NCBI GenBank assembly: GCA_964512645.1
Contig: CAZEJS010000010.1
Span: 7,022-71,021 of the forward strand
From: an uncultured Acidimicrobiales bacterium
GTDB taxonomy: Bacteria; Actinomycetota; Geothermincolia; Fen-727; Anoxymicrobiaceae
DNA: 64,000 nt
Reading direction: 5' to 3'
The position numbers and the translations under genes were made by a program. Positions 6,740 to 57,391 of this stretch are shown piece after piece (position 1 is the first letter of the stretch; each line of letters opens with the position of its first letter). The notes under the pieces were generated by a model. That model made no database searches. It was not told the DNA's origin and saw nothing but the letters and a program-made list of their open reading frames with translations.

Positions 6740-7582
6740 ATGGGAAGCCTGAAGCTCTGCTGCGTGGCGCCTCACCCCCCCATACTGGTCCCCGAGGTCG
6801 GGGGGCCCGAGGCCGAAAAGGTCAGCGCCACAGCGCGGGCCCTGCACTCCCTGGCCGACGAGATAGAGGCGCTCGATTTGGACACCGTCGTAATCATGTC
6901 CCCCCACAGTCCCGTGTACGCTGAAGCGTTTGCCGTGAAAGGCGTACCGTCGCTCGGCGGTTCACTCCGGCAGTTCGGCGCGCCGCAGGTTCGCTACGAC
7001 TCCGAGACGGACCTCGAGTTGGCCGGTTCCCTGGTCGAAGCGGCCGCCTCGATGGACGTCCGCTGCGAGATGGTTGGGACGCGCGGATACCGTCATCCGG
7101 ACGTGTCCGATCTGGACCACGGCGTGCTGGTTCCCATGCATTTCCTGGCCCGAAAGAGGTACCCGCTGGTGTGCATATCTCTTTCGATGCTGGATTACCG
7201 CTCCCACTACAAGCTGGGCGTCGCCCTGCGCCGTGCCGTTGAAGAGAGCGGCCGGAACTGCCTATTCGTGGCTTCCGGCGACATGTCCCACCGGCTGCTG
7301 CCGGGCGCCCCGGCAGGCTACGATCCCCTTGGGGCCGATTTCGACGCCGAGATTGTCGAGATACTGTCGAGCGGAGAATTCCGCGGGCTTTTCGAGCTGG
7401 ACGACAGGCTGGTGGACAGGGCGGGTGAGTGCGGCCTCCGGCCGGTCTTCACTCTCGCCGGCGCCGTTGACGGCTACGCCAGGTCCAGCGGCGTGCTTTC
7501 GTACGAAGGGCCGTTCGGGGTAGGTTATCTTGTTGCCAGGGTCAAGCCGGGGGCGCGGGACGCGTCTCTTTCTATCCTTTGA
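6740..7582 (+). CDS. LigB-family (class III extradiol dioxygenase / DODA-YgiD / Memo-like) protein
   Basis: Colinear with YgiD/LigB: APHPP(ILVP), SPHSP, DHGVLVPMHF, VASGDMSHRL. A 4-bp overlap with the downstream AMMECR1 gene. Confidence 0.75.
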   Translation: MGSLKLCCVAPHPPILVPEVGGPEAEKVSATARALHSLADEIEALDLDTVVIMSPHSPVYAEAFAVKGVPSLGGSLRQFGAPQVRYDSETDLELAGSLVEAAASMDVRCEMVGTRGYRHPDVSDLDHGVLVPMHFLARKRYPLVCISLSMLDYRSHYKLGVALRRAVEESGRNCLFVASGDMSHRLLPGAPAGYDPLGADFDAEIVEILSSGEFRGLFELDDRLVDRAGECGLRPVFTLAGAVDGYARSSGVLSYEGPFGVGYLVARVKPGARDASLSIL

Positions 7583-21887: not shown

Positions 21888-21926
21888 TCGCTTCCCTGTG
21901 GATGGAACCTCTATCGCGAATGTCCC

Positions 21927-21940
21927 ATAATATATATTAT
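21927..21940. repeat. 14-bp perfect AT palindrome ATAATATATATTAT inside an AT-rich island
   Basis: Self-complementary, embedded in cccATAATATATATTATgtaaacttatt within an otherwise GC-rich 650-bp intergenic region. Confidence 0.6.
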
Positions 21941-22312
21941 GTAAACTTATTGCGAACCACCCTTTTCCCCGCCCCGCAATCCCTCGTCTCGCACCTCTCC
22001 TCCCTGCTCGTGCAACCGGGTTACGTCTTGCGGGACGGCGACCGTCCTGTGTTAACTGTCAACAGGTGCAATCGGCTGAGGTGTTCCACCGCCTGGCGGC
22101 TCGTCGCCCCGGGCCCGGCGGGGCCTCTCCCCCGTCGTACCTGCCGCGGGCACTCCCCCGAGACAGGTCACCCGCCTTTTCCGGCGCGCAATTCCGGCGA
22201 CTCGGGTGACGGATGCCTTGCGCAATGTTCGCGCCGGCTACACCGGCCAGGGAAAGCAAGCGCGTATCGCGCGCGTTCTGGCGGCATCATTCCGGCTGTA
22301 GAGGCGAGGAGA

Positions 22313-38354: not shown

Positions 38355-39533
38355 TCACCAGAGCACTGCGCCCTTCAACGACTCCAGGACTCTCGACCGC
38401 AAATCTCGAGGACTCGGGGTTCCCCCAAGGAGCTTTCCCTGCCGAAACACCGGCTTGAGCATCGGTTCCGTCGGACCACCGCACTCCGGGCAGGAGACCT
38501 CTCCCCGTGAAGCCGGCGCCAGGGTCCGGCAGCCATCGGAAGTGCACCGCCAGAGCTGCTTGAGCGCCGACTCCTTCCCTCTCTTTGCCAGCGGCTCCCC
38601 GTCGATTTCGACAATATCCATGGCGAAATTTACAACCGGGGAGTTGCTGATGTGTGTGCCTACACCGTAGGCGTCCGCAACGCGGTTGTATTCCAGGATC
38701 TTCTTCTCGTCCAGGTCCCCGGAGACGAACAGCTTGAGGTGCGACAGGCCCCTGAGGTCCAGCTCCCATCGCACCTCTTCAATTATTTTCTGGAAGTCCC
38801 CGCGCCTCGAGCCCGGAGTATCCAGCCGCACGGCATAGAGCCTGTCCCCCAGCACTTCCGCGGCGAAAAGAGCGCCGAACTTCTCGTCCTGGAAAGTGTC
38901 GATGAGCGCCACCCGCGGGACGTCCCCGGGCATGGCTTCGTCGAACATCTCGAAAGCCAGGCGCTCGTCGCGGGCACACAATATCAGAGAATGCGACATG
39001 GTGCCGGATGGTTTCTCTCCTATCCGCTGGGCGCTCTCGACCACCGCGACTCCGTCGCACCCGCCGATGAAGGCGTTCCTTTCGATCATCGGCGCAATGG
39101 CGGGGTGCATCCGCCGCGCCCCGAAGCTTATGACGGCCCTCTCTCCCGCGGCTACCTTGCACCTGGCGGCGCTCGTGGCTATGCCCGACGCCTGACAGAC
39201 AAGCCCGAGAATCGCCGTCTCGAACACGCCGAAATCGAGATATCTGCCGGTGACCGAGAAGACCGGCTCGCCGGGGCCGAAGATCTCGCCTTCATTCATC
39301 GCGCTTACCTCGACGGGGAGTCCCTCGAGCAGCTCGAGCACCTCTTCCAGGCCGGAGAAGACAGCCCAGGGCCATCCATCGGGCAGGCTGCCGGTGCGCA
39401 CCTCCATCGACACCAGCGGGTTTATGCCGCGTTTCGCAAGGGATTCCGTGACCCGCTCGAAGTAAACGTCGGTGACCTTTCCTTGCTTGATGCGATCGTC
39501 AGACGCCACCAGAAATCCCATCCCGTCCTCCAT
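38355..39533 (-). CDS. pncB: Nicotinate phosphoribosyltransferase (archaeal/Thermus-type) with a C-terminal zinc ribbon
   Basis: NAPRTase family motifs (DTF..., GDLDE), C-terminal CPECGG. Confidence 0.85.
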   Translation of the reverse strand: MEDGMGFLVASDDRIKQGKVTDVYFERVTESLAKRGINPLVSMEVRTGSLPDGWPWAVFSGLEEVLELLEGLPVEVSAMNEGEIFGPGEPVFSVTGRYLDFGVFETAILGLVCQASGIATSAARCKVAAGERAVISFGARRMHPAIAPMIERNAFIGGCDGVAVVESAQRIGEKPSGTMSHSLILCARDERLAFEMFDEAMPGDVPRVALIDTFQDEKFGALFAAEVLGDRLYAVRLDTPGSRRGDFQKIIEEVRWELDLRGLSHLKLFVSGDLDEKKILEYNRVADAYGVGTHISNSPVVNFAMDIVEIDGEPLAKRGKESALKQLWRCTSDGCRTLAPASRGEVSCPECGGPTEPMLKPVFRQGKLLGGTPSPRDLRSRVLESLKGAVLW

Positions 39534-39550: not shown

Positions 39551-40084
39551 TCAGACCACTCTGGCACCAAACACACGCTGCAGCTGATCGAGAGCCCAGT
39601 TGCCGTCCTCTTCGTCAAGCCCTTTCACGGCGCTCCTGGGGACCGTCACATCGTAACCTCTCATCAGCGCTTCGATCGCGGATACCATGACGCAGATATT
39701 AGTCACCGTCCCGGTAATCACCACGCGCCTGATGCCCAGTTTCTTGGCAAGCAGGTCGTCCAACCCGGTCTTGTACCACGCCGAATACCTGGTTTTCTCC
39801 AGGACGTGATCGCTCTCCGAGGGAGCGAGTTCCTCGACGACCTCCGAGCCCCATGACCCCGCCACAGCGTGTTCGCCCCACCGGGAGAACTCGTCGTCGC
39901 CGGGCGCGTGGGCGTCGTTGACGAAAATGACAGGGGCACCGACTTCGTGGGCCTCGCGGATTAGCGCCGCGACCTCCTTGACGGTATCCTCAATCCCGGG
40001 GACGTACAGTTTCCCCTCAGGCTTGACGAAATCGTTGATCATGTCGGCTATGATCAGCGCGCTTCCACTGTCAAGAATCGCCAT
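39551..40084 (-). CDS. pncA: Nicotinamidase / isochorismatase-family hydrolase
   Basis: ALIIADMINDF, catalytic Cys in VTGTVTNICV; ATG 40084 preceded by a perfect SD AAGGAGG. Confidence 0.85.
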   Translation of the reverse strand: MAILDSGSALIIADMINDFVKPEGKLYVPGIEDTVKEVAALIREAHEVGAPVIFVNDAHAPGDDEFSRWGEHAVAGSWGSEVVEELAPSESDHVLEKTRYSAWYKTGLDDLLAKKLGIRRVVITGTVTNICVMVSAIEALMRGYDVTVPRSAVKGLDEEDGNWALDQLQRVFGARVV

Positions 40085-40124
40085 GTTGCCGTCCTCCTTC
40101 ACGCTCCTGGTGTCTCTGGGGATT

Positions 40125-41441
40125 TCACCGGACCACTGCGCCCCGGAGTGAATGCCCCCCCGCAGCCAAGACGTCTACCTCGAATACACTGTCGGTCGGA
40201 ACAGCGCCTTCTATCAGGATCACCCTGTTCCCCCTGGTGCGTGCGCTGGTCAATCCGCCCCTCCTGGCTTCTCCGGTGGCAACGACTTCGACGCGTCTGC
40301 CGACAACCTTCTGCAGCGACCTGGCGGTTATCCGTTCCTGTTCGTGCAGCAGACGACCCAACCTCTCGCGTTTCAGGGTCCCCGAAATCTGCCCCTGGAG
40401 TTCGTGCGCAGGCGTCCCACGCCGGACCGAGTACAGAAACGTGTAGGCGGCATCGAACCGAACATCCCTGACCAGATCCATCGTGGCCTCGAAATCGTCA
40501 TCTGATTCGCCGGGGAAGCCGACGATGATATCGGTGGTTAGTACGATGCCGGGTACGCTGCGCCTCACGCGCTCGACCAGCGCCATGTACTCCTCGCGGG
40601 TATAGCCTCGATTCATCGCGTCCAACACGGCGTTCGACCCCGACTGCACCGGCAGGTGCAGGTACTCGCATATCCGGGGCTCGCAGGCCATCGTTTTCAG
40701 CAGCTTGTCGCTGAGATCCGCAGGATGAGAAGTCTCGAACTTGATCCTCTGCACGCCCCCGACGCCGGCTACGGCATGGAGAAGCGAAGCAAAATCAGTT
40801 CCGATGTCTTTCCCGTACGCGTTGACGTTCTGCCCGAGGAGCGCCACCTCCGCAACCCCCCGGTTGGTGAGTTCGCGTACGTCCTCCAGAATCTCCTCCT
40901 CCCGCCTGCTCCTGTGCGGCCCTCTCACCGCGGGGATCACGCAGTAAGCGCACCTGTTGTCGCACCCGTGGCTCACCGGCACCCATCCCCAGGCCCGCGG
41001 CTCCCTGTCGAACGGGCACTCGTCAACCAGGGCACTCCCCGGGTCACCCACCTGGCAAACGCGCCCAGACCGGGAGGCCTCCAGAAGAGAAGGAAGGCGC
41101 TGGAGCTCCTCGATGCCGAACACCAGGTCGACCCCGGGCGCGCGGGTGAGTATGTCCAGGCCGTGCATCTGAGCCATGCATCCGGTTACGGCGATGGTTC
41201 GTGCCGGAGACCCCCTGCCGGAAATCGAGGCGATCTTGCCCCACGCCCTGTCCTCGGCGCTCTGCCGCACGCAGCATGTGTTGAAGACGACGAGGTCGGC
41301 GGTGCCCGGTGTATCGGAACGTCGGTATCCCGCGTTCAAGAGGGTACCGGCGATATGTTCAGAATCGTGAGAGTTCATCTGACAGCCGTATGTCCACACA
41401 TGGAACCCTGGCCGGTCGGAAGAGGGTGGCGTGGACATCAT
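40125..41441 (-). CDS. miaB: tRNA-2-methylthio-N6-dimethylallyladenosine synthase (radical SAM methylthiotransferase)
   Basis: N-terminal MTTase Cys triad (YGCQMN..., NTCCVR), radical SAM CAYCVIP, C-terminal TRAM domain. Confidence 0.9.
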   Translation of the reverse strand: MMSTPPSSDRPGFHVWTYGCQMNSHDSEHIAGTLLNAGYRRSDTPGTADLVVFNTCCVRQSAEDRAWGKIASISGRGSPARTIAVTGCMAQMHGLDILTRAPGVDLVFGIEELQRLPSLLEASRSGRVCQVGDPGSALVDECPFDREPRAWGWVPVSHGCDNRCAYCVIPAVRGPHRSRREEEILEDVRELTNRGVAEVALLGQNVNAYGKDIGTDFASLLHAVAGVGGVQRIKFETSHPADLSDKLLKTMACEPRICEYLHLPVQSGSNAVLDAMNRGYTREEYMALVERVRRSVPGIVLTTDIIVGFPGESDDDFEATMDLVRDVRFDAAYTFLYSVRRGTPAHELQGQISGTLKRERLGRLLHEQERITARSLQKVVGRRVEVVATGEARRGGLTSARTRGNRVILIEGAVPTDSVFEVDVLAAGGHSLRGAVVR

Positions 41442-41908
41442 GCCCCGCGGAATACGTCCCTGAACATACGTCTTTTGACAGCGAAGGTCAGGGCCGTCAC
41501 CGCTGTCGTGACAAAACCGAGTTTCGCCATCGGCGATTTGATCGCCTTCTCCACGGCGTCTGACGCTTCGCTCATCTTTCCGATGAGAACCGCTGTGTCT
41601 CCGGTGATGATCTCGACGTTCTCGAGTTCCCTGTTCACTCCATCGAGGGTAAGCTGGGCTTTTTTGAGAAGGGTCACGGCCTGTGGGCGGGTCTCGGCGA
41701 CCACGAAGGCTACCTCCTCCAGGGTCCTGCGCAATCTCAACAGGACGGGTATGAGCAACAGCACCACTATCACAACGGCTGCCGCTCCAACGACCTGGAG
41801 CACCTTCAGCGCCAATCTCTCTCCTCTCCGGCGTAACGCTTCAATACATTCTAGTGCATACTCCGCGAACCACAAACCGGCGCCCGGCGCCAGAGGGTGG
41901 GGCTCCAT
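41438..41908 (-). CDS. DUF948-like small membrane protein
   Basis: Single N-terminal TM (VVGAAAVVIVVLLLIPVLL) and a coiled C-terminal domain; 4-bp overlap with the miaB start; the start codon is uncertain. Confidence 0.55.
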   Translation of the reverse strand: MEPHPLAPGAGLWFAEYALECIEALRRRGERLALKVLQVVGAAAVVIVVLLLIPVLLRLRRTLEEVAFVVAETRPQAVTLLKKAQLTLDGVNRELENVEIITGDTAVLIGKMSEASDAVEKAIKSPMAKLGFVTTAVTALTFAVKRRMFRDVFRGA

Positions 41909-41965
41909 TCCTCCCGTCGTCTCGGTGGCGATGTCGCCCGGCGCGCCCGCCCGGAACGTTCCGGC

Positions 41966-42889
41966 TCAGAGCCAGCCGACAAAGGGGTACGCGTCGATCT
42001 TCCAGGCGTCGCCCTCCCTCACCAGCCGCACCTCTTCAATCCGGGGGTCGCCGTTCTCCACGTAAGCGATAACCTTGACGTTAGCGGTGTCCGGGTCGGA
42101 GAAGTCGATCTGCGCCGCGCTGACATAGTAGCCGACCGGCTTGTTGCTTCCCCAGGCGTCGTTCCAGCCCTGCATGAGCTTCTCTTTGGTGATCTTGAAG
42201 TAATCAAAACCTGTGTGCAGCCTGCTCGAGAGCATCGACCACACGGTATCGAGGTCGTGCCGGTGGATATCCGCGTCCATGAAAGCCTCGACGGTATCGT
42301 GCACGACTCTCGCGGCGGCCTCCGCGGCGGGATCCATGTGCCGGAAGGCGGACTGCAGCGTACTTCCGCCCTGGTAGAGATCGCCCGGCAATTTCACGCT
42401 CAACCACGGAGCCGAGCCCGTGAAGGAGGTCACCGCTTCCTGGGCACGGCTCGCAAGGCTTTCCAGGGCCGCCCGGCCATCGGCCACCGCCCGGTCGTCG
42501 CCCGCCGAAAGCTCTCCGAGAACGGTGGCGTATCTTCCGACGCTGTCCAGCGCCAGCCGCTCCCTCTCCGCCACCTCCCTGTACTTCCCTGGAACACGCG
42601 TCTTCTCCAGGGAGTTCGACACCTTCGCGACACCGGCGGCCAGCGCGCCGGCGCCTTCTTCCACCGCATCGAGATCCCCCGGGTTCGCCACCCTGGTCAT
42701 TGCGTCGACCAGCGTGTTCATCCGGCCCGCGATTCCCTTCCAGTCGGCGGAAACACGCTCCCTGAAAGCTCTTTCGGCCCGGCTTCTGGAGGCTGCGCAC
42801 CACCACGCCAGCCCGCCAGCGACACACCCCAGGACAAGCAGGGCCAGCAGGGCGACCACGGTGATGCGCCGCCAGCCCCAGCGCCTCAA
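41966..42889 (-). CDS. Membrane-anchored hypothetical protein (307 aa)
   Basis: N-terminal TM (ITVVALLALLVLGCVAGGLAWW) plus a soluble domain; 4-bp overlap with the upstream GHKL gene. Confidence 0.6.
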   Translation of the reverse strand: MRRWGWRRITVVALLALLVLGCVAGGLAWWCAASRSRAERAFRERVSADWKGIAGRMNTLVDAMTRVANPGDLDAVEEGAGALAAGVAKVSNSLEKTRVPGKYREVAERERLALDSVGRYATVLGELSAGDDRAVADGRAALESLASRAQEAVTSFTGSAPWLSVKLPGDLYQGGSTLQSAFRHMDPAAEAAARVVHDTVEAFMDADIHRHDLDTVWSMLSSRLHTGFDYFKITKEKLMQGWNDAWGSNKPVGYYVSAAQIDFSDPDTANVKVIAYVENGDPRIEEVRLVREGDAWKIDAYPFVGWL

Positions 42890-44040
42890 TCCACCTCACC
42901 GTCCTCGTCGGTCACGTAGCAGGACACTATGAGCTTGCCCCGGGAGCGCCTGACGCGGGGCGGGGCGGCACCGCGTAGGTAATACCTGCCGACAACCCCT
43001 TCGACCACCTTCGCGCATCCCTCCCCGATCCGGGCCAGGTCATCCCCGGAAAGCTTCCTCAGCGGACTTCTGATTCTGACCGCCTTCTTCGTGTCATGGC
43101 TTTGCACCTTTCCGGCTTTTCCTTCGGCGGCGGTGAACAACCTCGCCTGGGTCATGACCGTATCGAGAATGGTTATCTCGTCGTTGAGAATGCGGTACGA
43201 ATTTCGCTCCGAGACCGCCAGTCCCAGAAGCCTTCGCGAAGCCTCAGCGAGCGCCCTGGCTTCTTCGATGCCACATAACTCACTCCATGGAACCCGCTTC
43301 TCACCGGCGCCGATAAAACGCGCCGTGGCCAGCACCTCGGAGTAAGACCCCAGGTAGAATTCCATCTCGGGGTGATCGACTGACATCTCCAGGAGTACCC
43401 GCGCGACGTTGTGAGGCCCGGACCCAACCTCGGGCTCTTCATCGGTTCCAACGATGCAGGGCAGAGTCGCCTGGTCGGACCTCTCGCCCAGCTTCTTGGT
43501 GTCCACGCTCACCTGCATGACCGTACCCACCCCTGGCTCCGAGAACGCAACGTTAGCGGACATGCACCTGGATTTAATGGAAAACAGGGCCATCCCCCGG
43601 CCGTGGACCCCGTACCTGTCTTCATCGAAGTCCCGGCTCTTGGAGGTCACGCGCGGCTCGAAGATCGCCTGGTGCATCTCTCCGGGGATTCCGCACCCGT
43701 CGTCCATGACCGATATCCTCCTGTACCGGCCCTGCTCTTTCTGGAATGCGACCATGACACGCCTCGCCCCGGCGTCTCTGGAGTTGCGCACGAGCTCGGT
43801 CACTACATTCTCGACGGAGCGGATATCGTGCTGGGCCTGCCTTCGTTCCGCTTCCGCCACCTTGAGACGGACAAACCCGTGCGGGAGGTTCTCCTCGATT
43901 CGCAACCGCGCCGCGTCTGTCACTTGCGATACGAACCTGACGACGTCGCCCGCGAGCGAATCGCCCGAAGTATCGGTAGAGTCCACGCTCCCAGCCTGGA
44001 GGTCGCGCCTTCCGGCACGGCCCGGGCGGGCGCCGGTCAC
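42886..44040 (-). CDS. GHKL-superfamily (histidine kinase-like) ATPase domain protein, orphan (no DHp/receiver)
   Basis: N-box [11 protein letters not shown]1 DDGCGIP, G2 GVHGRGMAL; 4-bp overlap with the rny stop. Confidence 0.7.
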
Positions 44041-45569
44041 TTGGCGTACTCCACTACGCGCGTCTCACGAATCACGGTGATCTTGATCTGGCCGGGATAG
44101 TCGAGCTGGTCCTCGACCTCCTTCGCGACGTCCCTCGCCAGTGTCGCACTCTGCAGATCGTCAACGGAATCCGACTGGACAACAATGCGTATTTCTCTGC
44201 CGGCCTGCATCGCGTAGGCTTTTTCCACGCCTTCGAAGGAGTCCGCAAGCGTTTCGAGCTTCTCCAGCCTCTTGATGTAACTCTCCAGGGTCTCGCGCCG
44301 GGCGCCCGGCCTCGCCGCGGAAATGGCGTCGGCGGCCTGCACCAGGACACCTTCTATGGTCTTGACCTCGACTTCACCGTGGTGAGCCTCCACCGCATGC
44401 GTCACCGTATTGCTCTCCCCAAGGCGCTTGGTCAGCTCGGCGCCGATTAGCGCGTGTGAGCCTTCCACTTCGTGGTCTATCGCCTTTCCGATGTCATGCA
44501 AGAGCCCGGCCCGCTTGGGCAACTTCGGGTCGAGGCCCAGTTCCGCCGCCATGATGCCCGAAAGGTGCGCAACCTCGAGCGAGTGCATGAGGACGTTCTG
44601 CCCGTAGGAAGTCCTGAACTTCAACCTGCCGAGAGCCCTCACCAGCTCTTTATTGAGGTTGTGGATGCCGACCTCGAACGCCGCCTCTTCCCCGGCCTCG
44701 CGTATCTCGTTCTCGACCTCCGCCTTGGACTTCTCGTACATCTCCTCTATTCGTGCGGGCTGGATTCTTCCGTCGCCGATCAGCTTCTCCAGGGTTAGTC
44801 TCGCTATCTCCCTGCGGACGGGGTCAAAGCTCGAGAGGATCACCGCCTCGGGCGTGTCGTCGATAATAAGGTTGATGCCGGTGAGGTTCTCGAAGGTACG
44901 GATATTCCTCCCCTCGCGGCCGATTATCCTTCCCTTCATCTCGTCGCCCGGAAGCGGCACCACGGAGACAGTGGTTTCCGCGACGTGCTCAGAGGCGCAT
45001 CTCTGGATAGCCAGTGAAACGATCTTCCTTGCCCGCTTCTCCGCTTCCTCGCGTGCGCGCGACTCCTCCTCTTTGATGTAAACCGCGCTCTCGCGTTTCA
45101 CCTCTTCACTGATGTTTTCCAGGAGGTAATCCTTGGCTTCCTGAGTGGTCATCCTCGCCACCTTCTCGAGCAGTTTCTTCTGCTCCGCGGCGGCCTTCAT
45201 CAGCTTGGATTCCTGTCCCTTGAGGTGCTCTTCCCACGAAGCAATACGCTTGTCGCGCTTCTCCGCCTCCGCCTCCTTGGTCTCGAGCAGTTCCTCCCTT
45301 TGCGAGAGACGTCGCTCCTGTCTCTGCAGGTCGCTCCTGCGACTCTTGACCTCCCTGTCAGCCTCCGCCTTCATCGACAGGACTTCGTCCTTTGCCTCAA
45401 CCTGAGCTTCACGCTTCAGGTTCTCGACCTCTCTCCGTGCGTCTTCAACAAGCTTCTTTGCCTGGTTCTCCGCGGTTGATATGCGTGCTTCGGCAAGATA
45501 CTTCCTGCCCAGAAAACCCCCGATCAGCCCTATTGCGACGGCCGCCAGGCCGACTATTATGTAAATAAT
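44037..45569 (-). CDS. rny: Ribonuclease Y
   Basis: KH domain, HD domain (HS.EVA...HDIGK). The first ATG is 45374, but the in-frame upstream sequence encodes the conserved N-terminal TM anchor [32 protein letters not shown] with no canonical start (see findings). Confidence 0.85.
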
Positions 45570-45754
45570 GGCGATTACCCCCTTCTTCTATGTAAACACG
45601 CCGAGCAAACGCCCGGCGCTGTACAGACAAGTATGTCGGCCCGAGTGCGGTGCAGTGCTACCCGCCAGACCGATGATGGATTCCGCCCGATCCTGCCTAG
45701 GAAAACCCCATATATCTCAATACTCGACGTTCCAGCGCAATGAATGCCCTATTT

Positions 45755-46267
45755 TCATTCTAATTCGGCGCCAGTTTCAGTGTCAACTTGCTCGGCGTTC
45801 GCGCACGCCCCGCCGGCATCCTCAACAGAGTAACCGCGGCGGAGAAGATACGCGAAAGTCTTCTCCCTCGCTTTTGCGGCACCTATCGTGCCACTGAGGG
45901 CGGAATAGCGCCGCACGGCGGCTGCTCGTGCCCGTTCCCGCTCCTCCTCGTGGTCGAGAGACTCCATCAGGCATTCCACCAGTTCCCTGTCCAGTCGCTT
46001 TTTCAGAAGCTCGGAACGGATCCGGAACGACCCCAGTCCTTTTCTCACCAGTTCTTCGACGAAAGTCCTGCCGAATTCACGATCGTCCAGCAGGCCTGCC
46101 CGTGCCAGACGCCCGAGGACCAGCTCGGTGGTCTCCTGCCCGTATCCCCATTTCCGCAACCTGTCTCTGGTCTCCCCGGTGCTCCTGGCCCTGTATTCAA
46201 TGAAGCGGATCGCTTTCCTGTACGCTTCTTCGTCGATGCCCTGCATCAGCGGCGCCAGGGGGCTCAA
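45755..46267 (-). CDS. recX: Regulatory protein RecX
   Basis: RecX three-helix repeats (YALRLL...-like); 4-bp overlap with the recA stop. Confidence 0.8.
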
Positions 46268-47361
46268 GCGGGGTCCTTCGCCTTCGCGGACCCTTTCGCC
46301 TTCTTCTCCACGGGGACCACTTCCACCGACGCCAACGCCCCGTCCTCGGCACTTCCCGCGGCGACCGGCGCCAGTCCCGCTTCCTCGCGTATCCGGTTTT
46401 CGACGCGTTCGGAGATGTCGCTGTGTTCGGCCAGAAAGGACTTGGCGTTCTCGCGCCCCTGCCCCAGCTGGTCCTCTTCGTACATGTACCAGGCGCCGCT
46501 CTTCTTGATGACGCCGTGAGTGACCCCCAGGTCGAGTATATCGCCCTCGCGCGATACGCCCAGGCCGTACATGATATCGAATTCCGCGTTCTTGAACGGT
46601 GGAGCCACCTTGTTCTTGACCACCCGCGCGCGCACTCGGTTTCCAACGATGTCCGTGCCCTTCTTGATAGTGTCGATCTTTCTCAGGTCCAGCCTCACCG
46701 AGGAGTAGAACTTGAGCGCCCGTCCTCCGGGTGTAACCTCCGGGTTTCCGAACATTACACCTATCTTCTCCCTCAACTGATTGATGAAGATCGCGATCGT
46801 ATTGGACCTGTTTATGGCGTTGGACAGCTTCCGCAACGCCTGGGACATGAGCCGGGCCTGGAGGCCGACATGAGAGTCACCTATATCACCCTCTATCTCG
46901 GCCCTGGGCACGAGTGCGGCGACCGAGTCGATCACGACCACGTCCACCGCGGCGCTCCTCACCAGAAGCTCTGTTATCTCCAGCGCCTGTTCGCCGGTGT
47001 CTGGCTGGCTTATTAGCAGTTCGTCGATGTTCACCCCGAGGGCTCGCGAGTAGGCCGGGTCGAGCGCGTTCTCCGCGTCAATGAAAGCTCCGACGCCCCC
47101 CATCTTCTGCGCTTCTGCGACTATCTGCAGGGCGACCGTCGTCTTTCCGCTTGATTCCGGCCCGAATATTTCTATCACCCTGCCCCGGGGAAGGCCCCCC
47201 ACGCCGAGTGCGATATCCAGTGCCAGAGAACCGGTCGGTACAACCTCGACGGCCATCCTGTCGGCTTCGGCGCCAAGTTTCATGATGGAGCCCCGACCGA
47301 ACTGGCGCTCTATCTGCATGAGCGCCATCTCGAGTGATTTGTCCTTTTCCAATCTTCTCAC
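46264..47361 (-). CDS. recA: Recombinase RecA
   Basis: GPESSGKTT Walker [13 protein letters not shown]1/L2 loops. Confidence 0.95.
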
Positions 47362-47951
47362 CTCTTGTCAGTTCGGGCGGACTCATTGCCCACGCTATGG
47401 ATTACGGAATACTCGGATCCCTCGCTCGACAGAGTGCTCCGATAGAGGACCAGCCGGTCCACCTTCATCTCCAGCCAGTCCCGTGCGTACCGCTCAACGA
47501 TTCTCCCGGGAATCTTCACCGGCTTCCGAGCGCGGGCGACGGTGATGTGGGGAGTGTAACTCCTGCCCTCACGATTCAGACCGCAGGCCGCAGCGCCCTT
47601 GTCGAGCACATCGTACACTTTCTTCACACGGCCCGAGTCGTCGCACGCACCCACATATACGACTCTAGCAGACGACGGTGACGGAAATCCGCTCACTCCT
47701 CCGACCCTCAAAACGAAGGGCAGGTGCCTGGACGCTTTTTCCATCCATCGTGAATACTGATCGATCCTCTCCATGGAAAAAGGCCCGAGGAACCTGAGGG
47801 TCACGTGGAGATTGTCCGGGGGGACCCACCTTACACCGGCTAAGTCGTCGCTCATCTGCCCGACCACTTCTCGGACGAAGTCTCTGGTCCTGTCACTGAG
47901 TTCTATAGCGGTGAAAAGTCTCGGGTCGCGACGGCGCTGCTCGCTTCGCAT
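47358..47951 (-). CDS. thpR: RNA 2',3'-cyclic phosphodiesterase (2H phosphoesterase, ThpR/LigT)
   Basis: Two H-x-T-x motifs ([14 protein letters not shown]); 4-bp overlap with recA. Confidence 0.8.
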
Positions 47952-52548: not shown

Positions 52549-53835
52549 CTATCCCGAACCGCCAGCCCCGGGAGCGGGCTCGGTGGTACTCAGCAGCACT
52601 TTCACCACCCTGTTGTTCCTCACCAGCTCCACCTTGATGGCTACGCCGTTGTAATCGAACGACTCTCCCTTGACCGGCACGTGCCCGAGGACCTTGAACA
52701 CCAGACCCCCTACGGTATCGATGTCCTCCTCCTTGGGCATCGAGATTTGCAGGACCTCGTTGAGATCGTCTATGCTGATCCGGGCGTCAACCCTGTACCT
52801 GCCCTCTGCGAGCTTCTCCACGAGGTCGATCTCCATGTCGAACTCGTCGAATATCTCCCCGACCAACTCTTCCAGCAGGTCCTCGATTGTGACCAGTCCT
52901 ACCACGGTGCCGTACTCGTCGACGATCAGGGCCATGTGCACTTTTCGGCTCCTGAACTCCCGCAGCATGTCGCTCAAGACCTTTGTCTCCGGTACCACGA
53001 ACGCCTCACGGGCGATACCGCCGACTTCTCTGGTCAGGTTTCCCTCCTGCAGGTAGAGCATCAGGTCCTTGGCGTAAAGAACTCCTCTGATGTTGTCCAG
53101 CTCCCCGGAATAGACGGGGATGCGGGAGAATCCGCGCTCGATGGTCAGAACCAGGGCGTCCTTGACGGTTGCGTCCGCCTCGAGCGTCACCATGTCGGGC
53201 CTGGGAACCATTACCTCCCTGACCATCGTGTCGGAGAATTCGAACACGGAGTGGATCATGTCCTTCTCCTCGACCTCGATGACGTCGTGCTCCTCCGCCG
53301 CGGTGACCATCGCCTTGATCTCGCCCTCGTCACGGACAAGGACCTCAGAAGGCGGCGGGCCGCGCCTCAGGACTCTCAGCACCCCTCTCGCCACAAGCTC
53401 GAAGAGTACGGCCAGCGGGTGTAGAAGCCAGCTCATGAAACCAATCGGCCTCGTCACCGCCAGCGCGTAACGCTCGGAGTCGTGGCTGGCGGCGGCCTTC
53501 GGCACCAGTTCTCCGAAGACAAACATGAATATGGTGAGCACCACGGTGCCAGCCACCACCCCAATTCCCGCGTTATGGGTGAGCCTGGTCGTCAGCCAGG
53601 TCGTCAGCGACGCAGAAGTGAGCTGCACCACGAGCACCATCAGAAGAAGCGGGGGCAGAAAGTAATCGGGGTTCTCGATGAGTTTCTCGAGCTTCCTGGC
53701 CCTGGCAACGTCTTTCTCGACAAGGTACTTCACCCTTATCCTGCTGACACTCATGAGCGCGGTCTCTGAAGCCGCAAGGTACGCGGCGAAAAGTATCAAC
53801 AGGACAAGACCGATCAATCCGAGGGTGATGGTCAT
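52549..53835 (-). CDS. CNNM/CorC-type transporter (DUF21 + CBS pair + CorC_HlyC), hemolysin-family
   Basis: N-terminal 4-TM DUF21, two CBS domains, C-terminal transporter-associated domain. Confidence 0.85.
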   Translation of the reverse strand: MTITLGLIGLVLLILFAAYLAASETALMSVSRIRVKYLVEKDVARARKLEKLIENPDYFLPPLLLMVLVVQLTSASLTTWLTTRLTHNAGIGVVAGTVVLTIFMFVFGELVPKAAASHDSERYALAVTRPIGFMSWLLHPLAVLFELVARGVLRVLRRGPPPSEVLVRDEGEIKAMVTAAEEHDVIEVEEKDMIHSVFEFSDTMVREVMVPRPDMVTLEADATVKDALVLTIERGFSRIPVYSGELDNIRGVLYAKDLMLYLQEGNLTREVGGIAREAFVVPETKVLSDMLREFRSRKVHMALIVDEYGTVVGLVTIEDLLEELVGEIFDEFDMEIDLVEKLAEGRYRVDARISIDDLNEVLQISMPKEEDIDTVGGLVFKVLGHVPVKGESFDYNGVAIKVELVRNNRVVKVLLSTTEPAPGAGGSG

Positions 53836-54311
53836 GGGTAGTCTCCCGCCTCCGTTCCGGTCATGGCGCCACCGGTAAGCCTGATCTCCGCTGCGCGCAT
53901 CTTGCGCGACCCCTCGCTGTCGTCGTGGCGGTACCCGAGGAGATGGAGAAGGCCGTGGGCGGCGAGCATCTCGAGCTCCCGGTCCAGTGCTTCTCCCCGT
54001 CCGAGCGCCTGCCTGCCGGCCGCCTCGATGTCAATAACGATATCGCCCAGCGCCTCCTCCCCTTGGGATCCCAGCAGGTTCAACTCGCCGGGCTCCAGCT
54101 GTGGAAAAGAGAGGACGTCCGTCGGCTCGTCGATCCCGCGGTACTCGGAGTTCAGCCGGCGCATGCCGGAGTCGTCGGTCACCAGGACGCTCAACTCGAC
54201 CGCAATGTCAGGAAGCAATTCGCGCGTCATCCTCCGTAGAGCGCGCTCAAGTCGCCCCCGCAACCGCCTTGTCGTCACCGCCCGCGGGTCTGTCTTTACC
54301 CTTACGCCCAT
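53832..54311 (-). CDS. ybeY: rRNA maturation endoribonuclease YbeY
   Basis: HGLLHLLGYRHDD zinc motif. Confidence 0.85.
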   Translation of the reverse strand: MGVRVKTDPRAVTTRRLRGRLERALRRMTRELLPDIAVELSVLVTDDSGMRRLNSEYRGIDEPTDVLSFPQLEPGELNLLGSQGEEALGDIVIDIEAAGRQALGRGEALDRELEMLAAHGLLHLLGYRHDDSEGSRKMRAAEIRLTGGAMTGTEAGDYP

Positions 54312-56406
54312 TCTTACGCTCCGCTCGTGAATCCGGGTAGTCCACGCGTGGGTGGTACGACCCGATGAGCATCCGCTCGAATATCGCCTTGATCTTGTTC
54401 AGTTCCTCGAAGGTCAGCGGGCACTCGTCCAGCTGGCCGTCTTCGAGCTTGTCGTCGACTACTTTCTCCACCATCTGCTGGATCGACACCGCTGTAGGGT
54501 TCTCCAGCGTTCTCGCCGTGGCCTCTACCGCGTCGGCCAGCATTACGATCCCGGCGGTCCTCCTCCGCGGCTTCGTGTAATGGTACCTGAACCTTTCGAT
54601 GTCCACCGGCTTTCCGCCTTCGAGCGCCGCCTGGTAGAAGTACCTCACAACGCTGGTGCCGTGGTGCTCCCTGACGATCTCCACGAGGTCGGGTGGAAAG
54701 TGGTGTTTCTCCAGCATTTCCACCCCGTCTCTCACGTGAGAGGTGATGATGAGCAGGCTCAGGTTCGGGCTGAGCCCCCCGTGGGGGTTCTCCCCGGGCT
54801 GCTGGTTCTCCACGAAATACTGCGGCTTGGCGATCTTTCCTATATCGTGGTAGTAGGCGGCCACCCTCGCAAGCATCGGGTCGCTGCCGATCTCACGGGC
54901 GGCCGCCTCGGCGAGGTTCGCCACCATGACGCTGTGGGAGTATGTGCCCGGCGCCTTGAGCGTGAGCAGCTTCATCAGCTCCTGGTCCGGCGCCGCCAGC
55001 TCCAGCAGCCAGGTATTGGTGGTGACCCGGAACGTCGTCTCCAGGAACGGCAGTGATCCCAGGGCGACTATCGTGCACACCGCCCCGTTGAGAAACCCTA
55101 TGCCGGTATTCAACAGGATGTCGGTACCGCCCTGGGTAAGAGCGGTCGCGCCGAACGCTACTCCCGCGGTCCAGAACGAAGTGTAGAGCCCGACCCTCCG
55201 CAGCTCGTGTCGGGTCGACGTGCGCGATGCGTACAGCGACGGGAAGATTCCGCCGAGGATGGTCAGCAGCATGATCGAGAAATCACCCTTGGTCACGACG
55301 CCGGCGATCAGCCCGCACAGCGCAACCGAGACCAGGGCTGTTCCGCTGTCGAACAGCACCGCGACGATAATGGCGATTGCGGCCGAGGGCATGAGATACC
55401 CCCAGAACGAAGACCAGCTCCTCGACGCGAAAGTCAGCAGGTTGGCGAAGATCGCAAACGCGGTGATCGACGACCCGAGGAGCAGCAGCAGGCCCGGGCT
55501 GTCGTAGTACATCCTGCGGAACTTCGCCAGATACATCGCCATCGCGGCCATCAACAGCACCACCAGGACTGAGACGTAGAGCATGTTCAGCGGCGAGAAG
55601 CTCCACCCGGTGAAACCCAGGCTCTTCAGCAGGTCGTAGACCTCGGGTGTCACGACCGTGCCCCTGCGCACTATGATCTCGCCTTCCAGCCGGGTGGTAA
55701 CGACCGGCTTCACCGCTTTCCGGGCGGCCTGCCTGCGGCCTTCGGTCTCGGCCTGGTCGGCTATGAGGTTGGGCTTCATCGCCACAGCGGCGACCGACTG
55801 CGCGGCCTGCCGTATGTCGGGGTCGTCGGTCTGGCCGCTTATGCGGGCGCTCGCGGACTTCACCGCGGCCTCGACCTCACCGCCGTGGACACCGTGCTCC
55901 ATCTCCGCGACGACGGCGCTCGTTACCACCTGGCGTGCCGCGGCTCTCTGTTCTGGAGCAAGGGCGACGAGCTGCCCCAGGGCGCCGGCGTAGGCCTTGT
56001 CCTCGAGCTTCTCCTCCCCCAGGGTCGTGCGCTCCGCGTCGTCACCCGCGAGCGCCGTCACCTCGTCGGCGATGGCGAATACCCTGTCGATGGCCGCGAC
56101 AACGTTCCCGGCCACTTTCTCGTCGGTTACGTACACTTCACTGAGCGCCGCTGCGGCGGCGTCCTGCTGCTCCTGCGTCCTGCTCCTGTCGACGTACTGC
56201 ACGGTCGAAGGCGCGACGATGGTCCTGGGGCTGGCTTTTTCCGCCTCCACCTGATACCCGTACGGCGCGATCTCCGTGGTGATTATCAAAACGAGCATAA
56301 CGAAGATAGCAAGCGCCACGACCAGGCGCTTTCGCGCCAGCGAGACCCTGTCGGCGCGCTTTCTCAGCGACGCGATCAGGTCGAGGTATCTCTTTCTGTA
56401 GCTCAT
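54247..56406 (-). CDS. 7TM-receptor with intracellular HD hydrolase (PgpH/YqfF-like)
   Basis: Large extracellular N-domain, 7 TM, HD domain (HSVMVANLAE...YYHDIGK); start taken at MSYRKRYL (ATG 56406), 1 nt after the phoH stop. Confidence 0.8.
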   Translation of the reverse strand: MSYRKRYLDLIASLRKRADRVSLARKRLVVALAIFVMLVLIITTEIAPYGYQVEAEKASPRTIVAPSTVQYVDRSRTQEQQDAAAAALSEVYVTDEKVAGNVVAAIDRVFAIADEVTALAGDDAERTTLGEEKLEDKAYAGALGQLVALAPEQRAAARQVVTSAVVAEMEHGVHGGEVEAAVKSASARISGQTDDPDIRQAAQSVAAVAMKPNLIADQAETEGRRQAARKAVKPVVTTRLEGEIIVRRGTVVTPEVYDLLKSLGFTGWSFSPLNMLYVSVLVVLLMAAMAMYLAKFRRMYYDSPGLLLLLGSSITAFAIFANLLTFASRSWSSFWGYLMPSAAIAIIVAVLFDSGTALVSVALCGLIAGVVTKGDFSIMLLTILGGIFPSLYASRTSTRHELRRVGLYTSFWTAGVAFGATALTQGGTDILLNTGIGFLNGAVCTIVALGSLPFLETTFRVTTNTWLLELAAPDQELMKLLTLKAPGTYSHSVMVANLAEAAAREIGSDPMLARVAAYYHDIGKIAKPQYFVENQQPGENPHGGLSPNLSLLIITSHVRDGVEMLEKHHFPPDLVEIVREHHGTSVVRYFYQAALEGGKPVDIERFRYHYTKPRRRTAGIVMLADAVEATARTLENPTAVSIQQMVEKVVDDKLEDGQLDECPLTFEELNKIKAIFERMLIGSYHPRVDYPDSRAERKNGRKGKDRPAGGDDKAVAGAT

Positions 56407-56407
56407 G

Positions 56408-57391
56408 TCATCCGCCGGAAGGGCCCGGGTCCCCCTGCGACTCGTACTTCTTGTAAGCCTCGACAATCTGCTGGACGATCTTGTGCCGGACAACGTCACG
56501 CGCGTCGAGGTTCACGAACGAGACGCCGTCTATGTCCCGCAGTATCTCCCGAACGACCTTCAGGCCGGAGGAGACCTCCTTGGGAAGGTCCACCTGGGTG
56601 ACGTCCCCGGTTATGACCGCCCTGCTCCCGAAGCCCAGTCTGGTGAGAAACATCTTCATCTGCTCCGGGCTGGTGTTCTGGGCTTCGTCCAGGATGATGA
56701 AGGAATCGTTCAAGGTCCTTCCCCGCATGAACCCGAGGGGCGCCACTTCGATAATCCCCTGGTCCGTCATCCGGTGGAACTTCTCGGCCCCGAGCATCTC
56801 GTAGAGCGCATCGTAGAGGGGCCTCAGGTAAGGGTCGACCTTCTGGTACAGGTCCCCGGGCAGGAAACCGAGCCTCTCCCCCGCTTCGACCGCGGGCCTG
56901 GTCAGGATCAGCCTGTTGACTTTCCGGTCCAGGAGACACTGCACCGCGTACGCCAGCCCCAGGTAAGTCTTCCCCGTCCCCGCCGGTCCGATGCTGAACA
57001 CGATGGTGGAGGTACGCATCACCTCCACGTATTTCTTCTGGCCCAGGGTCTTCGGCCGGATTACCTTTCCCCTGGCCGTCAGCACAGCGTCGCGAAACAG
57101 GTCGGTGGGCTTCAGCTCCTCGCCGCGCCGGACCATGTCAATGGCAATCGACAGGTTCTCAGGGGTTATCACCAACCCGGCTTCGAGAAGCTCGACGAGC
57201 TCCTCGAAGAGGGTCGTACACAGCCCCGCTTCCGTGGCGTCACCGCTGATGTCGATCTCGTTGCCCCTGGCAAACACGCTGCAGGCGAAAGCCTCGGCAA
57301 CCACGTTGAGGAACCTGTCCTCCTGCCCGAGAAGCGCTACCATGGGCAGGTTGTGAGGGACCACCAGCTTGATTTCGGCATGTTCAGGCAC
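56408..57391 (-). CDS. phoH: PhoH-family ATPase
   Basis: Walker A GPAGTGKTYL, DEAQN. Confidence 0.9.
   Translation of the reverse strand: MPEHAEIKLVVPHNLPMVALLGQEDRFLNVVAEAFACSVFARGNEIDISGDATEAGLCTTLFEELVELLEAGLVITPENLSIAIDMVRRGEELKPTDLFRDAVLTARGKVIRPKTLGQKKYVEVMRTSTIVFSIGPAGTGKTYLGLAYAVQCLLDRKVNRLILTRPAVEAGERLGFLPGDLYQKVDPYLRPLYDALYEMLGAEKFHRMTDQGIIEVAPLGFMRGRTLNDSFIILDEAQNTSPEQMKMFLTRLGFGSRAVITGDVTQVDLPKEVSSGLKVVREILRDIDGVSFVNLDARDVVRHKIVQQIVEAYKKYESQGDPGPSGG

Follow-up and report, generated by a model that had tools for sequence, protein, structure and literature searches.

The DNA analysed here (hereafter the window) was a stretch of 64,000 nucleotides from an uncultured Acidimicrobiales bacterium, assigned in GTDB to the Anoxymicrobiaceae (Actinomycetota, Geothermincolia). 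It corresponds to positions 7,022 to 71,021 of the forward strand of contig CAZEJS010000010.1 (GenBank assembly GCA_964512645.1). The subject of this work is a gene at 42886–44040 on the minus strand, which encodes a soluble GHKL ATPase of the MutL class (GHL) with 384 residues and is a conserved neighbour of rny, the gene for RNase Y. Inspection of the locus revealed recA (46264–47361), recX (45755–46267), rny (44037–45569), the ATPase gene, p307 (41966–42889), a DUF948-like gene (41438–41908) and miaB (40125–41441) in 5' to 3' order, all on the minus strand.

A preliminary description of this DNA had claimed that five genes, with RNase Y first and MiaB last, were chained by 4-bp overlaps or short gaps, and this was confirmed. 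Three stop/start overlaps of 4 bp could be read from the sequence: GTGA at the rny/ATPase junction AAGTGACC, TTGA at the ATPase/p307 junction GATTGAGG, and ATGA at the DUF948/miaB junction GCATGATG, where the DUF948 stop lies over the miaB start. The spacer between p307 and the DUF948-like gene was 57 nucleotides, or about 150 nucleotides when the conserved DUF948 start is used. The span of 41438–45590 given for the chain held only in part: the genes were present, but miaB falls outside it, and 45590 is an in-frame stop upstream of rny. The first product, of about 511 residues, matched TIGR03319 with 734 bits (cut-off 454) and the Pfam families RNase_Y_N, KH_1 and HD, and it exhibited the full RNase Y architecture at equivalog level, with an N-terminal transmembrane (TM) helix (residues 1–25), a coiled coil, and KH and HD domains. 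The last product matched TIGR01574 with 406.7 bits (cut-off 355.3) as well as UPF0004 and Radical_SAM in Pfam, and was identified as the tRNA-i6A37 methylthiotransferase MiaB.

Linkage of the ATPase gene to rny

By a pattern scan of GTDB with one genome per species, at least 570 species-level genomes with a relative of the ATPase were found, and the 80 closest were fetched. In all 79 of these loci in which the upstream neighbour could be evaluated, rny was immediately upstream of the ATPase gene, with recA further upstream and miaB downstream. The same pair was observed in 7/7 extra loci down to 32% identity, which took in the two most divergent full-length representatives (32–34% identity). 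Across the resulting 86 loci, spanning 32–96% identity, rny and the ATPase gene were never separated; the distance from the rny stop to the ATPase start was mostly 0–130 nucleotides. The ATPase gene was in the same transcriptional context as rny, and the reading frames were often overlapping or near-abutting. The pair was kept in L084, where recA was not upstream, and also in the absence of spoVS, both in the window and in L087, where miaB came directly next. The link of the GHKL gene to rny claimed in the preliminary description was therefore upheld, with rny adjacent upstream in 86/86 loci. In anaerobic Actinomycetota, the place of the ATPase gene right behind rny is thus a constant one, often with translational coupling of the two genes, and this linkage is far beyond chance.

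The carriers included the Coriobacteriia (Atopobium, Olsenella, Collinsella, Parafannyhessea and Anaerosomatales), Ca. Geothermincolia (Anoxymicrobiaceae and Solincola) and Ca. Aquicultoria. Five bins labelled Aeromicrobium, Acutalibacteraceae, Agathobacter rectalis or Bacteroidaceae (L030, L057, L058, L071 and L072) carried a recA-rny-GHL-spoVS-miaB locus of the Coriobacteriia type, and their implausible taxon labels are probably due to bin contamination or mislabelling.

Between the ATPase gene and miaB, the gene content was variable. The usual order in relatives (L006–L085) was ATPase, spoVS, often PHP, miaB, LigB/AMMECR1 and miaA. A spoVS gene, encoding an Alba-fold product of 86–107 residues, was found downstream of the ATPase gene in 71 of the 80 loci over which it was counted. 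It was accompanied by a gene for a PHP phosphoesterase of about 275 residues, which we take to be TrpH/YciV-like, in ~29 loci, and by DUF948 and an AP_endonuc_2 protein in several loci. Carriage of spoVS thus extends to non-sporulating Actinomycetota. Neither spoVS nor the PHP gene was found anywhere in the window when searched for. In the clade of the window, the place of both is taken by a lineage-specific membrane protein, p307, whose gene is a clade-specific insertion at the site occupied by spoVS in relatives. Over 85 loci, p307 was present in 4 (L002–L005, Anoxymicrobiaceae-like relatives) and DUF948 in 13, so that the conserved module is rny and the ATPase gene, optionally with spoVS, and not a trio of the ATPase gene, p307 and DUF948. 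As to whether such a trio accompanies rny in relatives, the ATPase gene was always there, but p307 and DUF948 were mostly absent.

The product of p307 (307 residues) showed a TM segment at residues 5–34, in agreement with the N-terminal anchor described before, followed by a helical middle and a weak NTF2-like C-terminus. For the latter, DUF4878, DUF3828 and Rv0361_Cterm were obtained, all sub-threshold NTF2-like matches, and the p307 profile gave no significant match in the PDB. The DUF948-like protein contained one TM segment and a coiled coil, a layout consistent with DUF948. Its earlier designation as a DUF948 membrane protein stood in this respect, but the score for PF06103 (31.7 bits, E 1.8e-7) was below the Pfam gathering threshold of 37.2 bits; the homologue in L006 scored 28.3 bits. 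Its conserved start is probably TTG 41815, giving a protein of 125 residues, judged from the 11 aligned homologues, which begin at the residue encoded there. A terminator-like GC hairpin, CTGGCGCCGGGCGCCGG then TTTGTGGTT (41868–41893, minus strand), was located between the p307 stop and this start. Because of this hairpin, rny-ATPase-p307 and DUF948-miaB may be separate transcriptional sub-units. The rny/ATPase junction also allowed a second assignment, since most homologues in the alignment begin at the GTG corresponding to codon 19 of the ATPase gene. With this start the overlap would be replaced by a gap of ~50 nucleotides.

The position of the ATPase gene, directly after rny and before spoVS, is the same slot as that of ymdB in Bacillus subtilis, where spoVS lies downstream of ymdB. 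YmdB is a metallophosphoesterase unrelated to the GHKL ATPase, and the likeness is one of position. In Bacillus, ymdB is the second gene of a bicistronic rny operon (PMC3328962, PMC8266666).

Domains and motifs of the ATPase

HATPase_c (47.6 bits) and HATPase_c_3 (44.8 bits) were the sole Pfam matches of the ATPase, both above their gathering thresholds of 26.4 and 25 bits, which places the protein in the GHKL (Bergerat-fold) superfamily. No HisKA and no receiver domain was matched. The protein contained no hydrophobic segment (maximum KD19 of 0.75) and is, by this prediction, soluble.

Residue conservation was read from an alignment of 40 homologues with 37–84% identity (A1). The N box, E82-L-V-R-N86-S-R-D89-A-G-A (43765–43797, minus strand, as for all motifs below), was invariant and aligned to ELVENSLDAKA of Aquifex MutL; in this alignment E82 pairs with the catalytic base of MutL and N86 with its Mg2+ ligand. 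The G1 box, D113-D-G-C-G117-I-P (43684–43704), provides the adenine-binding Asp; D113 and G117 were invariant, and the box aligned to DNGTGI of MutL. A MutL-type motif III, R130-V-T-S-K134 (43639–43653), aligned to ATSK of Aquifex MutL, with R130–S133 invariant. In the G2 box or ATP lid (residues 144–154; 43579–43611), G144 and H146-G-R-G149 were invariant. The profile alignment likewise paired ELVRNSRDA with ELVENSLDA, DDGCGI with DNGTGI and RVTSK with ATSK. In all 40 homologues, E82, N86, D89, D113, G117, R130–S133, G144 and H146–G149 were thus unchanged, and a MutL-type site for ATP binding and hydrolysis is predicted to be intact. A family-specific motif, E63-A-E-R-R-Q-A69, was found just before the N-box helix and was also invariant. 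By comparison, H71 of an H-box-like HDIRS motif was Gln in 7 of the 40 homologues. The preliminary description had reported an orphan GHKL protein with intact N, G1 and G2 boxes and without kinase dimerisation or receiver partners, which agreed with these observations.

When the family profile was compared with all PDB sequences, 18 matches were obtained, 16 of which were N-terminal domains of MutL, MLH1 or PMS2. The best match was Aquifex MutL (E 3.7e-10), as against E 1e-3 for the best histidine kinase. Concerning the GHKL class, a point raised in the preliminary description, MutL was therefore nearest by profile, and no anti-sigma kinases appeared in the profile search. MutL was also the top NCBIfam match, although the TIGR00585 score was 48.6 bits (cut-off 180) and the match was confined to residues 73–157. 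In the fold comparison, the figures listed were 12.3–13.8 for MutL/MLH1/PMS1, 11–11.6 for GyrB/TopoVI-B, 9.8 for CovS and 9.2 for SpoIIAB. The Foldseek TM-score was 0.27 for MutL vs 0.18–0.20 for histidine-kinase CA domains, and the root mean square deviation was also better for MutL. Having an xTSK motif III and being closer to MutL than to histidine kinases, the head of the ATPase is MutL-like (GHL).

Only about 160 residues could be aligned to MutL, and the C-terminal half is therefore not an S5-fold transducer. For this half, about 180 residues, there was no fold match in the PDB. The ATPase consequently differs from MutL, MLH1 and PMS2, with which it shares the Bergerat fold, motif I (ExxxNxxD), motif II (DxGxG), motif III (xTSK) and the G2 lid, in lacking the S5-fold transducer and the C-terminal dimerisation/endonuclease domain, in an N-terminal extension of about 70 residues with the invariant EAERRQA, in its unique C-terminal half, and in its genomic partner, which is an RNase gene and not mutS. 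Unlike GyrB, ParE, TopoVI-B and MORC, it has no transducer, TOPRIM, H2TH or CW domain, it is much smaller, and no gene for a topoisomerase A subunit is nearby. With the CA domains of histidine kinases, SpoIIAB and RsbW it shares the superfamily fold, and their structural matches were significant but lower-ranking; unlike them, it is devoid of a DHp/HisKA domain and of a conserved His as phospho-acceptor, has a motif III of the MutL type, and is not partnered by a sigma factor, an anti-anti-sigma factor or a response regulator. In short, the ATPase joins a MutL-type head to a C-terminal domain that is new, and its very tight association with an RNase gene is likewise new.

Among 1.84 billion representatives, 208 members of the family were found at E <= 1e-30, 312 at E <= 1e-10 and 3471 at E <= 1e-3. 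The family amounted to 208 clusters at 50% identity, and almost all full-length members had 340–400 residues. It is a discrete, sharply bounded and uncharacterised family. In cultured Collinsella, Olsenella and Parafannyhessea, its members are annotated only as "ATP-binding protein"; the Collinsella and Olsenella proteins include WP_087355507 and WP_204793616. In some sources, homologues are entered as a sensor histidine kinase or an anti-sigma regulatory factor.

Several other assignments were tried and rejected. A true MutL was discarded in view of the score below the cut-off and the missing transducer and C-terminal dimerisation/endonuclease domain. As to a sensor histidine kinase, there was no HisKA, H71 was variable, and no receiver gene was present in the window neighbourhood or the annotated loci. 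The anti-sigma Ser/Thr kinases SpoIIAB and RsbW have about 140–160 residues and come with a STAS antagonist and a sigma factor, a description that the ATPase did not fit. For a defence GHKL protein, PADLOC gave no more than a marginal match to MzaB (E 3.4e-4, 17 bits, ATPase core), and the context was a conserved housekeeping region. No functional clue was gained from domain fusion, as the sole long homologue (P0078, 509 residues) was a misassembly with internally duplicated ATPase segments.

Possible roles of the ATPase

In Gram-positive bacteria, mRNA decay depends mainly on the endonuclease RNase Y. The control of its activity and specificity, in which the Y-complex is involved in Bacillus, is understood only in part. 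Since the ATPase gene lies directly after rny in every related genome examined, its product is a candidate new partner of RNase Y. In GHL ATPases, ATP binding closes the lid and dimerises the N-terminal domains, and hydrolysis then resets the clamp or switch so formed. By analogy, the ATPase would bind ATP, dimerise via its N-terminal region and hydrolyse ATP, and this cycle would be used as a clamp or switch that acts either on RNase Y itself or on its substrates, tuning the activity, oligomeric state or target choice of the enzyme. ATP-driven dimerisation and any contact with RNase Y are inferred, the latter from gene order only. We tentatively favour the reading that the ATPase is an ATP-driven dimerising switch working with RNase Y, and would put it a little short of an even chance. 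Its RNA-related neighbours were thpR, rny, spoVS, the PHP phosphoesterase gene, miaB and miaA. Where spoVS is present, SpoVS might be an RNA-binding partner of the ATPase; SpoVS is a nucleic-acid binder of the Alba superfamily (PMC11621453, PMC2732212). A further-reaching version appears somewhat doubtful to us: for Coriobacteriia and related Actinomycetota, it would make the protein the first GHKL/MutL-type ATPase in RNA decay, an ATP-powered subunit by which, together with an RNA-binding SpoVS, RNase Y and its substrates are gated or remodelled. The accessory factors RicA, RicF and RicT of the Y-complex, which tune RNase Y cleavage in B. subtilis (PMC10470536), offer a conceptual precedent only, as the Ric proteins are non-homologous Fe-S/flavin proteins, are not ATPases and are not encoded beside rny.

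Several observations weigh against a switch working with RNase Y. Gene order was the sole link of the ATPase to RNase Y, and beyond the 80 closest loci the distant relatives were sampled only via the 7 extra exact-protein look-ups. On the side of the protein, Foldseek E-values did not separate MutL from histidine-kinase CA domains, and no GHL transducer domain could be recognised, so that activation may differ from that of MutL and GyrB. The C-terminal domain, with a median net charge of +1, was not markedly basic, and direct RNA binding is therefore not indicated; the charge analysis gave no clear nucleic-acid-binding surface. To our knowledge, no GHKL ATPase acts in RNA decay, and nothing relevant was found in the literature pairing RNase Y with GHKL, MutL or Coriobacteriia. 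The same was true of the literature pairing SpoVS with Coriobacteriia.

By sequence and by fold, the ATPase is closest to MutL, GyrB and TopoVI-B, all of which act on DNA; recA and recX are just upstream, and SpoVS has been predicted to be a DNA-binding regulator (PMC2732212). The ATPase might accordingly act with SpoVS on DNA or the nucleoid, as a MutL/MORC/TopoVI-B-like clamp in recombination, repair or chromosome organisation, and merely sit in an ancient recA-rny neighbourhood. We consider this unlikely: the ATPase has neither the transducer nor the C-terminal dimerisation/endonuclease domain of MutL, it is still beside rny when recA is not upstream (L084), and in the window a promoter-like site and about 180 nucleotides of leader lie between recX and rny, whereas rny and the ATPase gene overlap. 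The adjacency could also be an inherited gene order without functional coupling, the ATPase having an unrelated housekeeping role, as the evidence is one of context only and the block pgsA-cinA-thpR-recA-recX-rny...miaB-miaA is a conserved housekeeping region (PMC3328962). It is difficult to reconcile such inertia with the free turnover of spoVS, PHP, AP_endonuc_2, DUF948 and p307 and with the changes among the upstream genes, while rny and the ATPase gene were never split in the 86 loci, and this explanation is distinctly unlikely.

It seems improbable that the ATPase is a GHKL-type protein kinase, anti-sigma- or PDK-like, that phosphorylates RNase Y, SpoVS or another target. Such a role would fit the anti-sigma and sensor-kinase labels that some sources attach to homologues, the significant structural matches to histidine-kinase CA domains and SpoIIAB, and the loose resemblance of H71-D-I-R-S to an H box. 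But H71, which stands just 15 residues ahead of the N box, is replaced by Gln in 7/40 homologues, the RVTSK motif, of the MutL type, is invariant, there is no HisKA, and none of the loci contained a gene for a STAS antagonist, a sigma factor or a receiver. The profile search pointed the same way, with no anti-sigma kinases and with E 1e-3 for the best histidine kinase vs 3.7e-10 for MutL. The preliminary description had envisaged a membrane-associated ATPase trio, in which the GHKL protein, p307 and the DUF948 protein would together be accessory to RNase Y. In the window these genes share one strand and their junctions are short or overlapping, and a KD scan showed one N-terminal hydrophobic/TM segment each in RNase Y, p307 and the DUF948 protein. 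The claim was nevertheless not sustained, and such a trio is highly improbable: p307 and DUF948 were found in 4/85 and 13/85 loci, the ATPase is predicted to be soluble with no membrane segment, the terminator-like hairpin lies between p307 and DUF948, the coupling of DUF948 is to miaB and not to the ATPase gene, and p307 ends in a weak NTF2-like region that is similar to exported or lipoprotein domains.

A dedicated ATPase whose gene keeps step with rny throughout an entire branch of the Actinomycetota is a concrete and testable candidate regulator, and its carriers include the common human gut and oral genera Collinsella, Olsenella and Atopobium; gut Coriobacteriia are cultivable. If the ATPase does work with RNase Y, GHKL/MutL-type ATPases would gain a role in RNA metabolism beside those in DNA, chaperone and kinase functions, and a new type of RNase Y "degradosome" would be implied. 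The widespread and enigmatic SpoVS would then be tied to RNA decay and given a molecular role, and a non-homologous substitute for ymdB in these lineages would be suggested. Should the link be merely positional, a new GHKL family with a novel C-terminal domain is still defined.

The rny leader and the surrounding region

No ATG, GTG or TTG was found in rny before codon ~66, and these first ~65 codons encode the TM helix. The start is most likely ATT 45569, which sits 8 nucleotides past the Shine-Dalgarno sequence GAAGGGGG (45585–45578). In an alignment of the region with L001–L005 (A3), the codon at this place was ATT in the window, L003 and L004, ATC in L001 and L002, and ATG in L005, and a strong Shine-Dalgarno sequence, GGGGG(G)T, was observed 7–8 nucleotides before it (45566–45590 in the window). 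A start of the AUU/AUC type is known from infC, and by analogy the conserved AUU/AUC start of rny could imply translational control of RNase Y synthesis.

A consensus scan gave a sigma-70-like promoter, TTGACA-18-TAGAAT (11/12 matches; 45757–45786, minus strand), inside the 3' end of recX, which could drive rny and the genes downstream. Between this promoter-like site and rny there was a leader of about 175–180 nucleotides. In the leader, the alignment and a fold prediction revealed a hairpin, GCGCCGGGC-GTTT-GCTCGGCGT (45598–45619, minus strand), which was kept in L001–L004 as GCGCCGRGC/GCTCGGCGY. It could be a recX terminator or a regulatory leader of rny. Neither the operon nor the rny leader had a match in Rfam.

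Beyond miaB, a pncA-like gene (39551–40102) and a pncB-like gene (38355–39533) were located on the minus strand. On the other side, directly upstream of recA, there was a gene for a LigT/ThpR 2',3'-cyclic phosphodiesterase (47358–47951, minus strand), another RNA-end enzyme in the vicinity; the order cinA-thpR-recA was also seen in L081 and L083. At 53832–57391 on the minus strand, phoH, a 7TM-HD (PgpH-like) gene and ybeY were found in a row, followed by a CNNM/CorC gene. Between this cluster and thpR lay yggS-like, sepF, proC, divIVA and yggU genes, a typical conserved housekeeping context.

At a distance from this locus, a candidate XerCD dif site, ATGTCCCATAATATATATTATGTAAACT, was found at 21920–21947 on the plus strand in an intergenic position; the pattern search gave 1 match in the window vs 0/100 shuffles. 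We take the site to be identical to B. subtilis dif at 24 of 28 positions. The cumulative GC skew peaked near 17 kb, and the gene orientation changed from plus to minus between 16.8 and 19.3 kb. From these features, the window probably spans the replication terminus.

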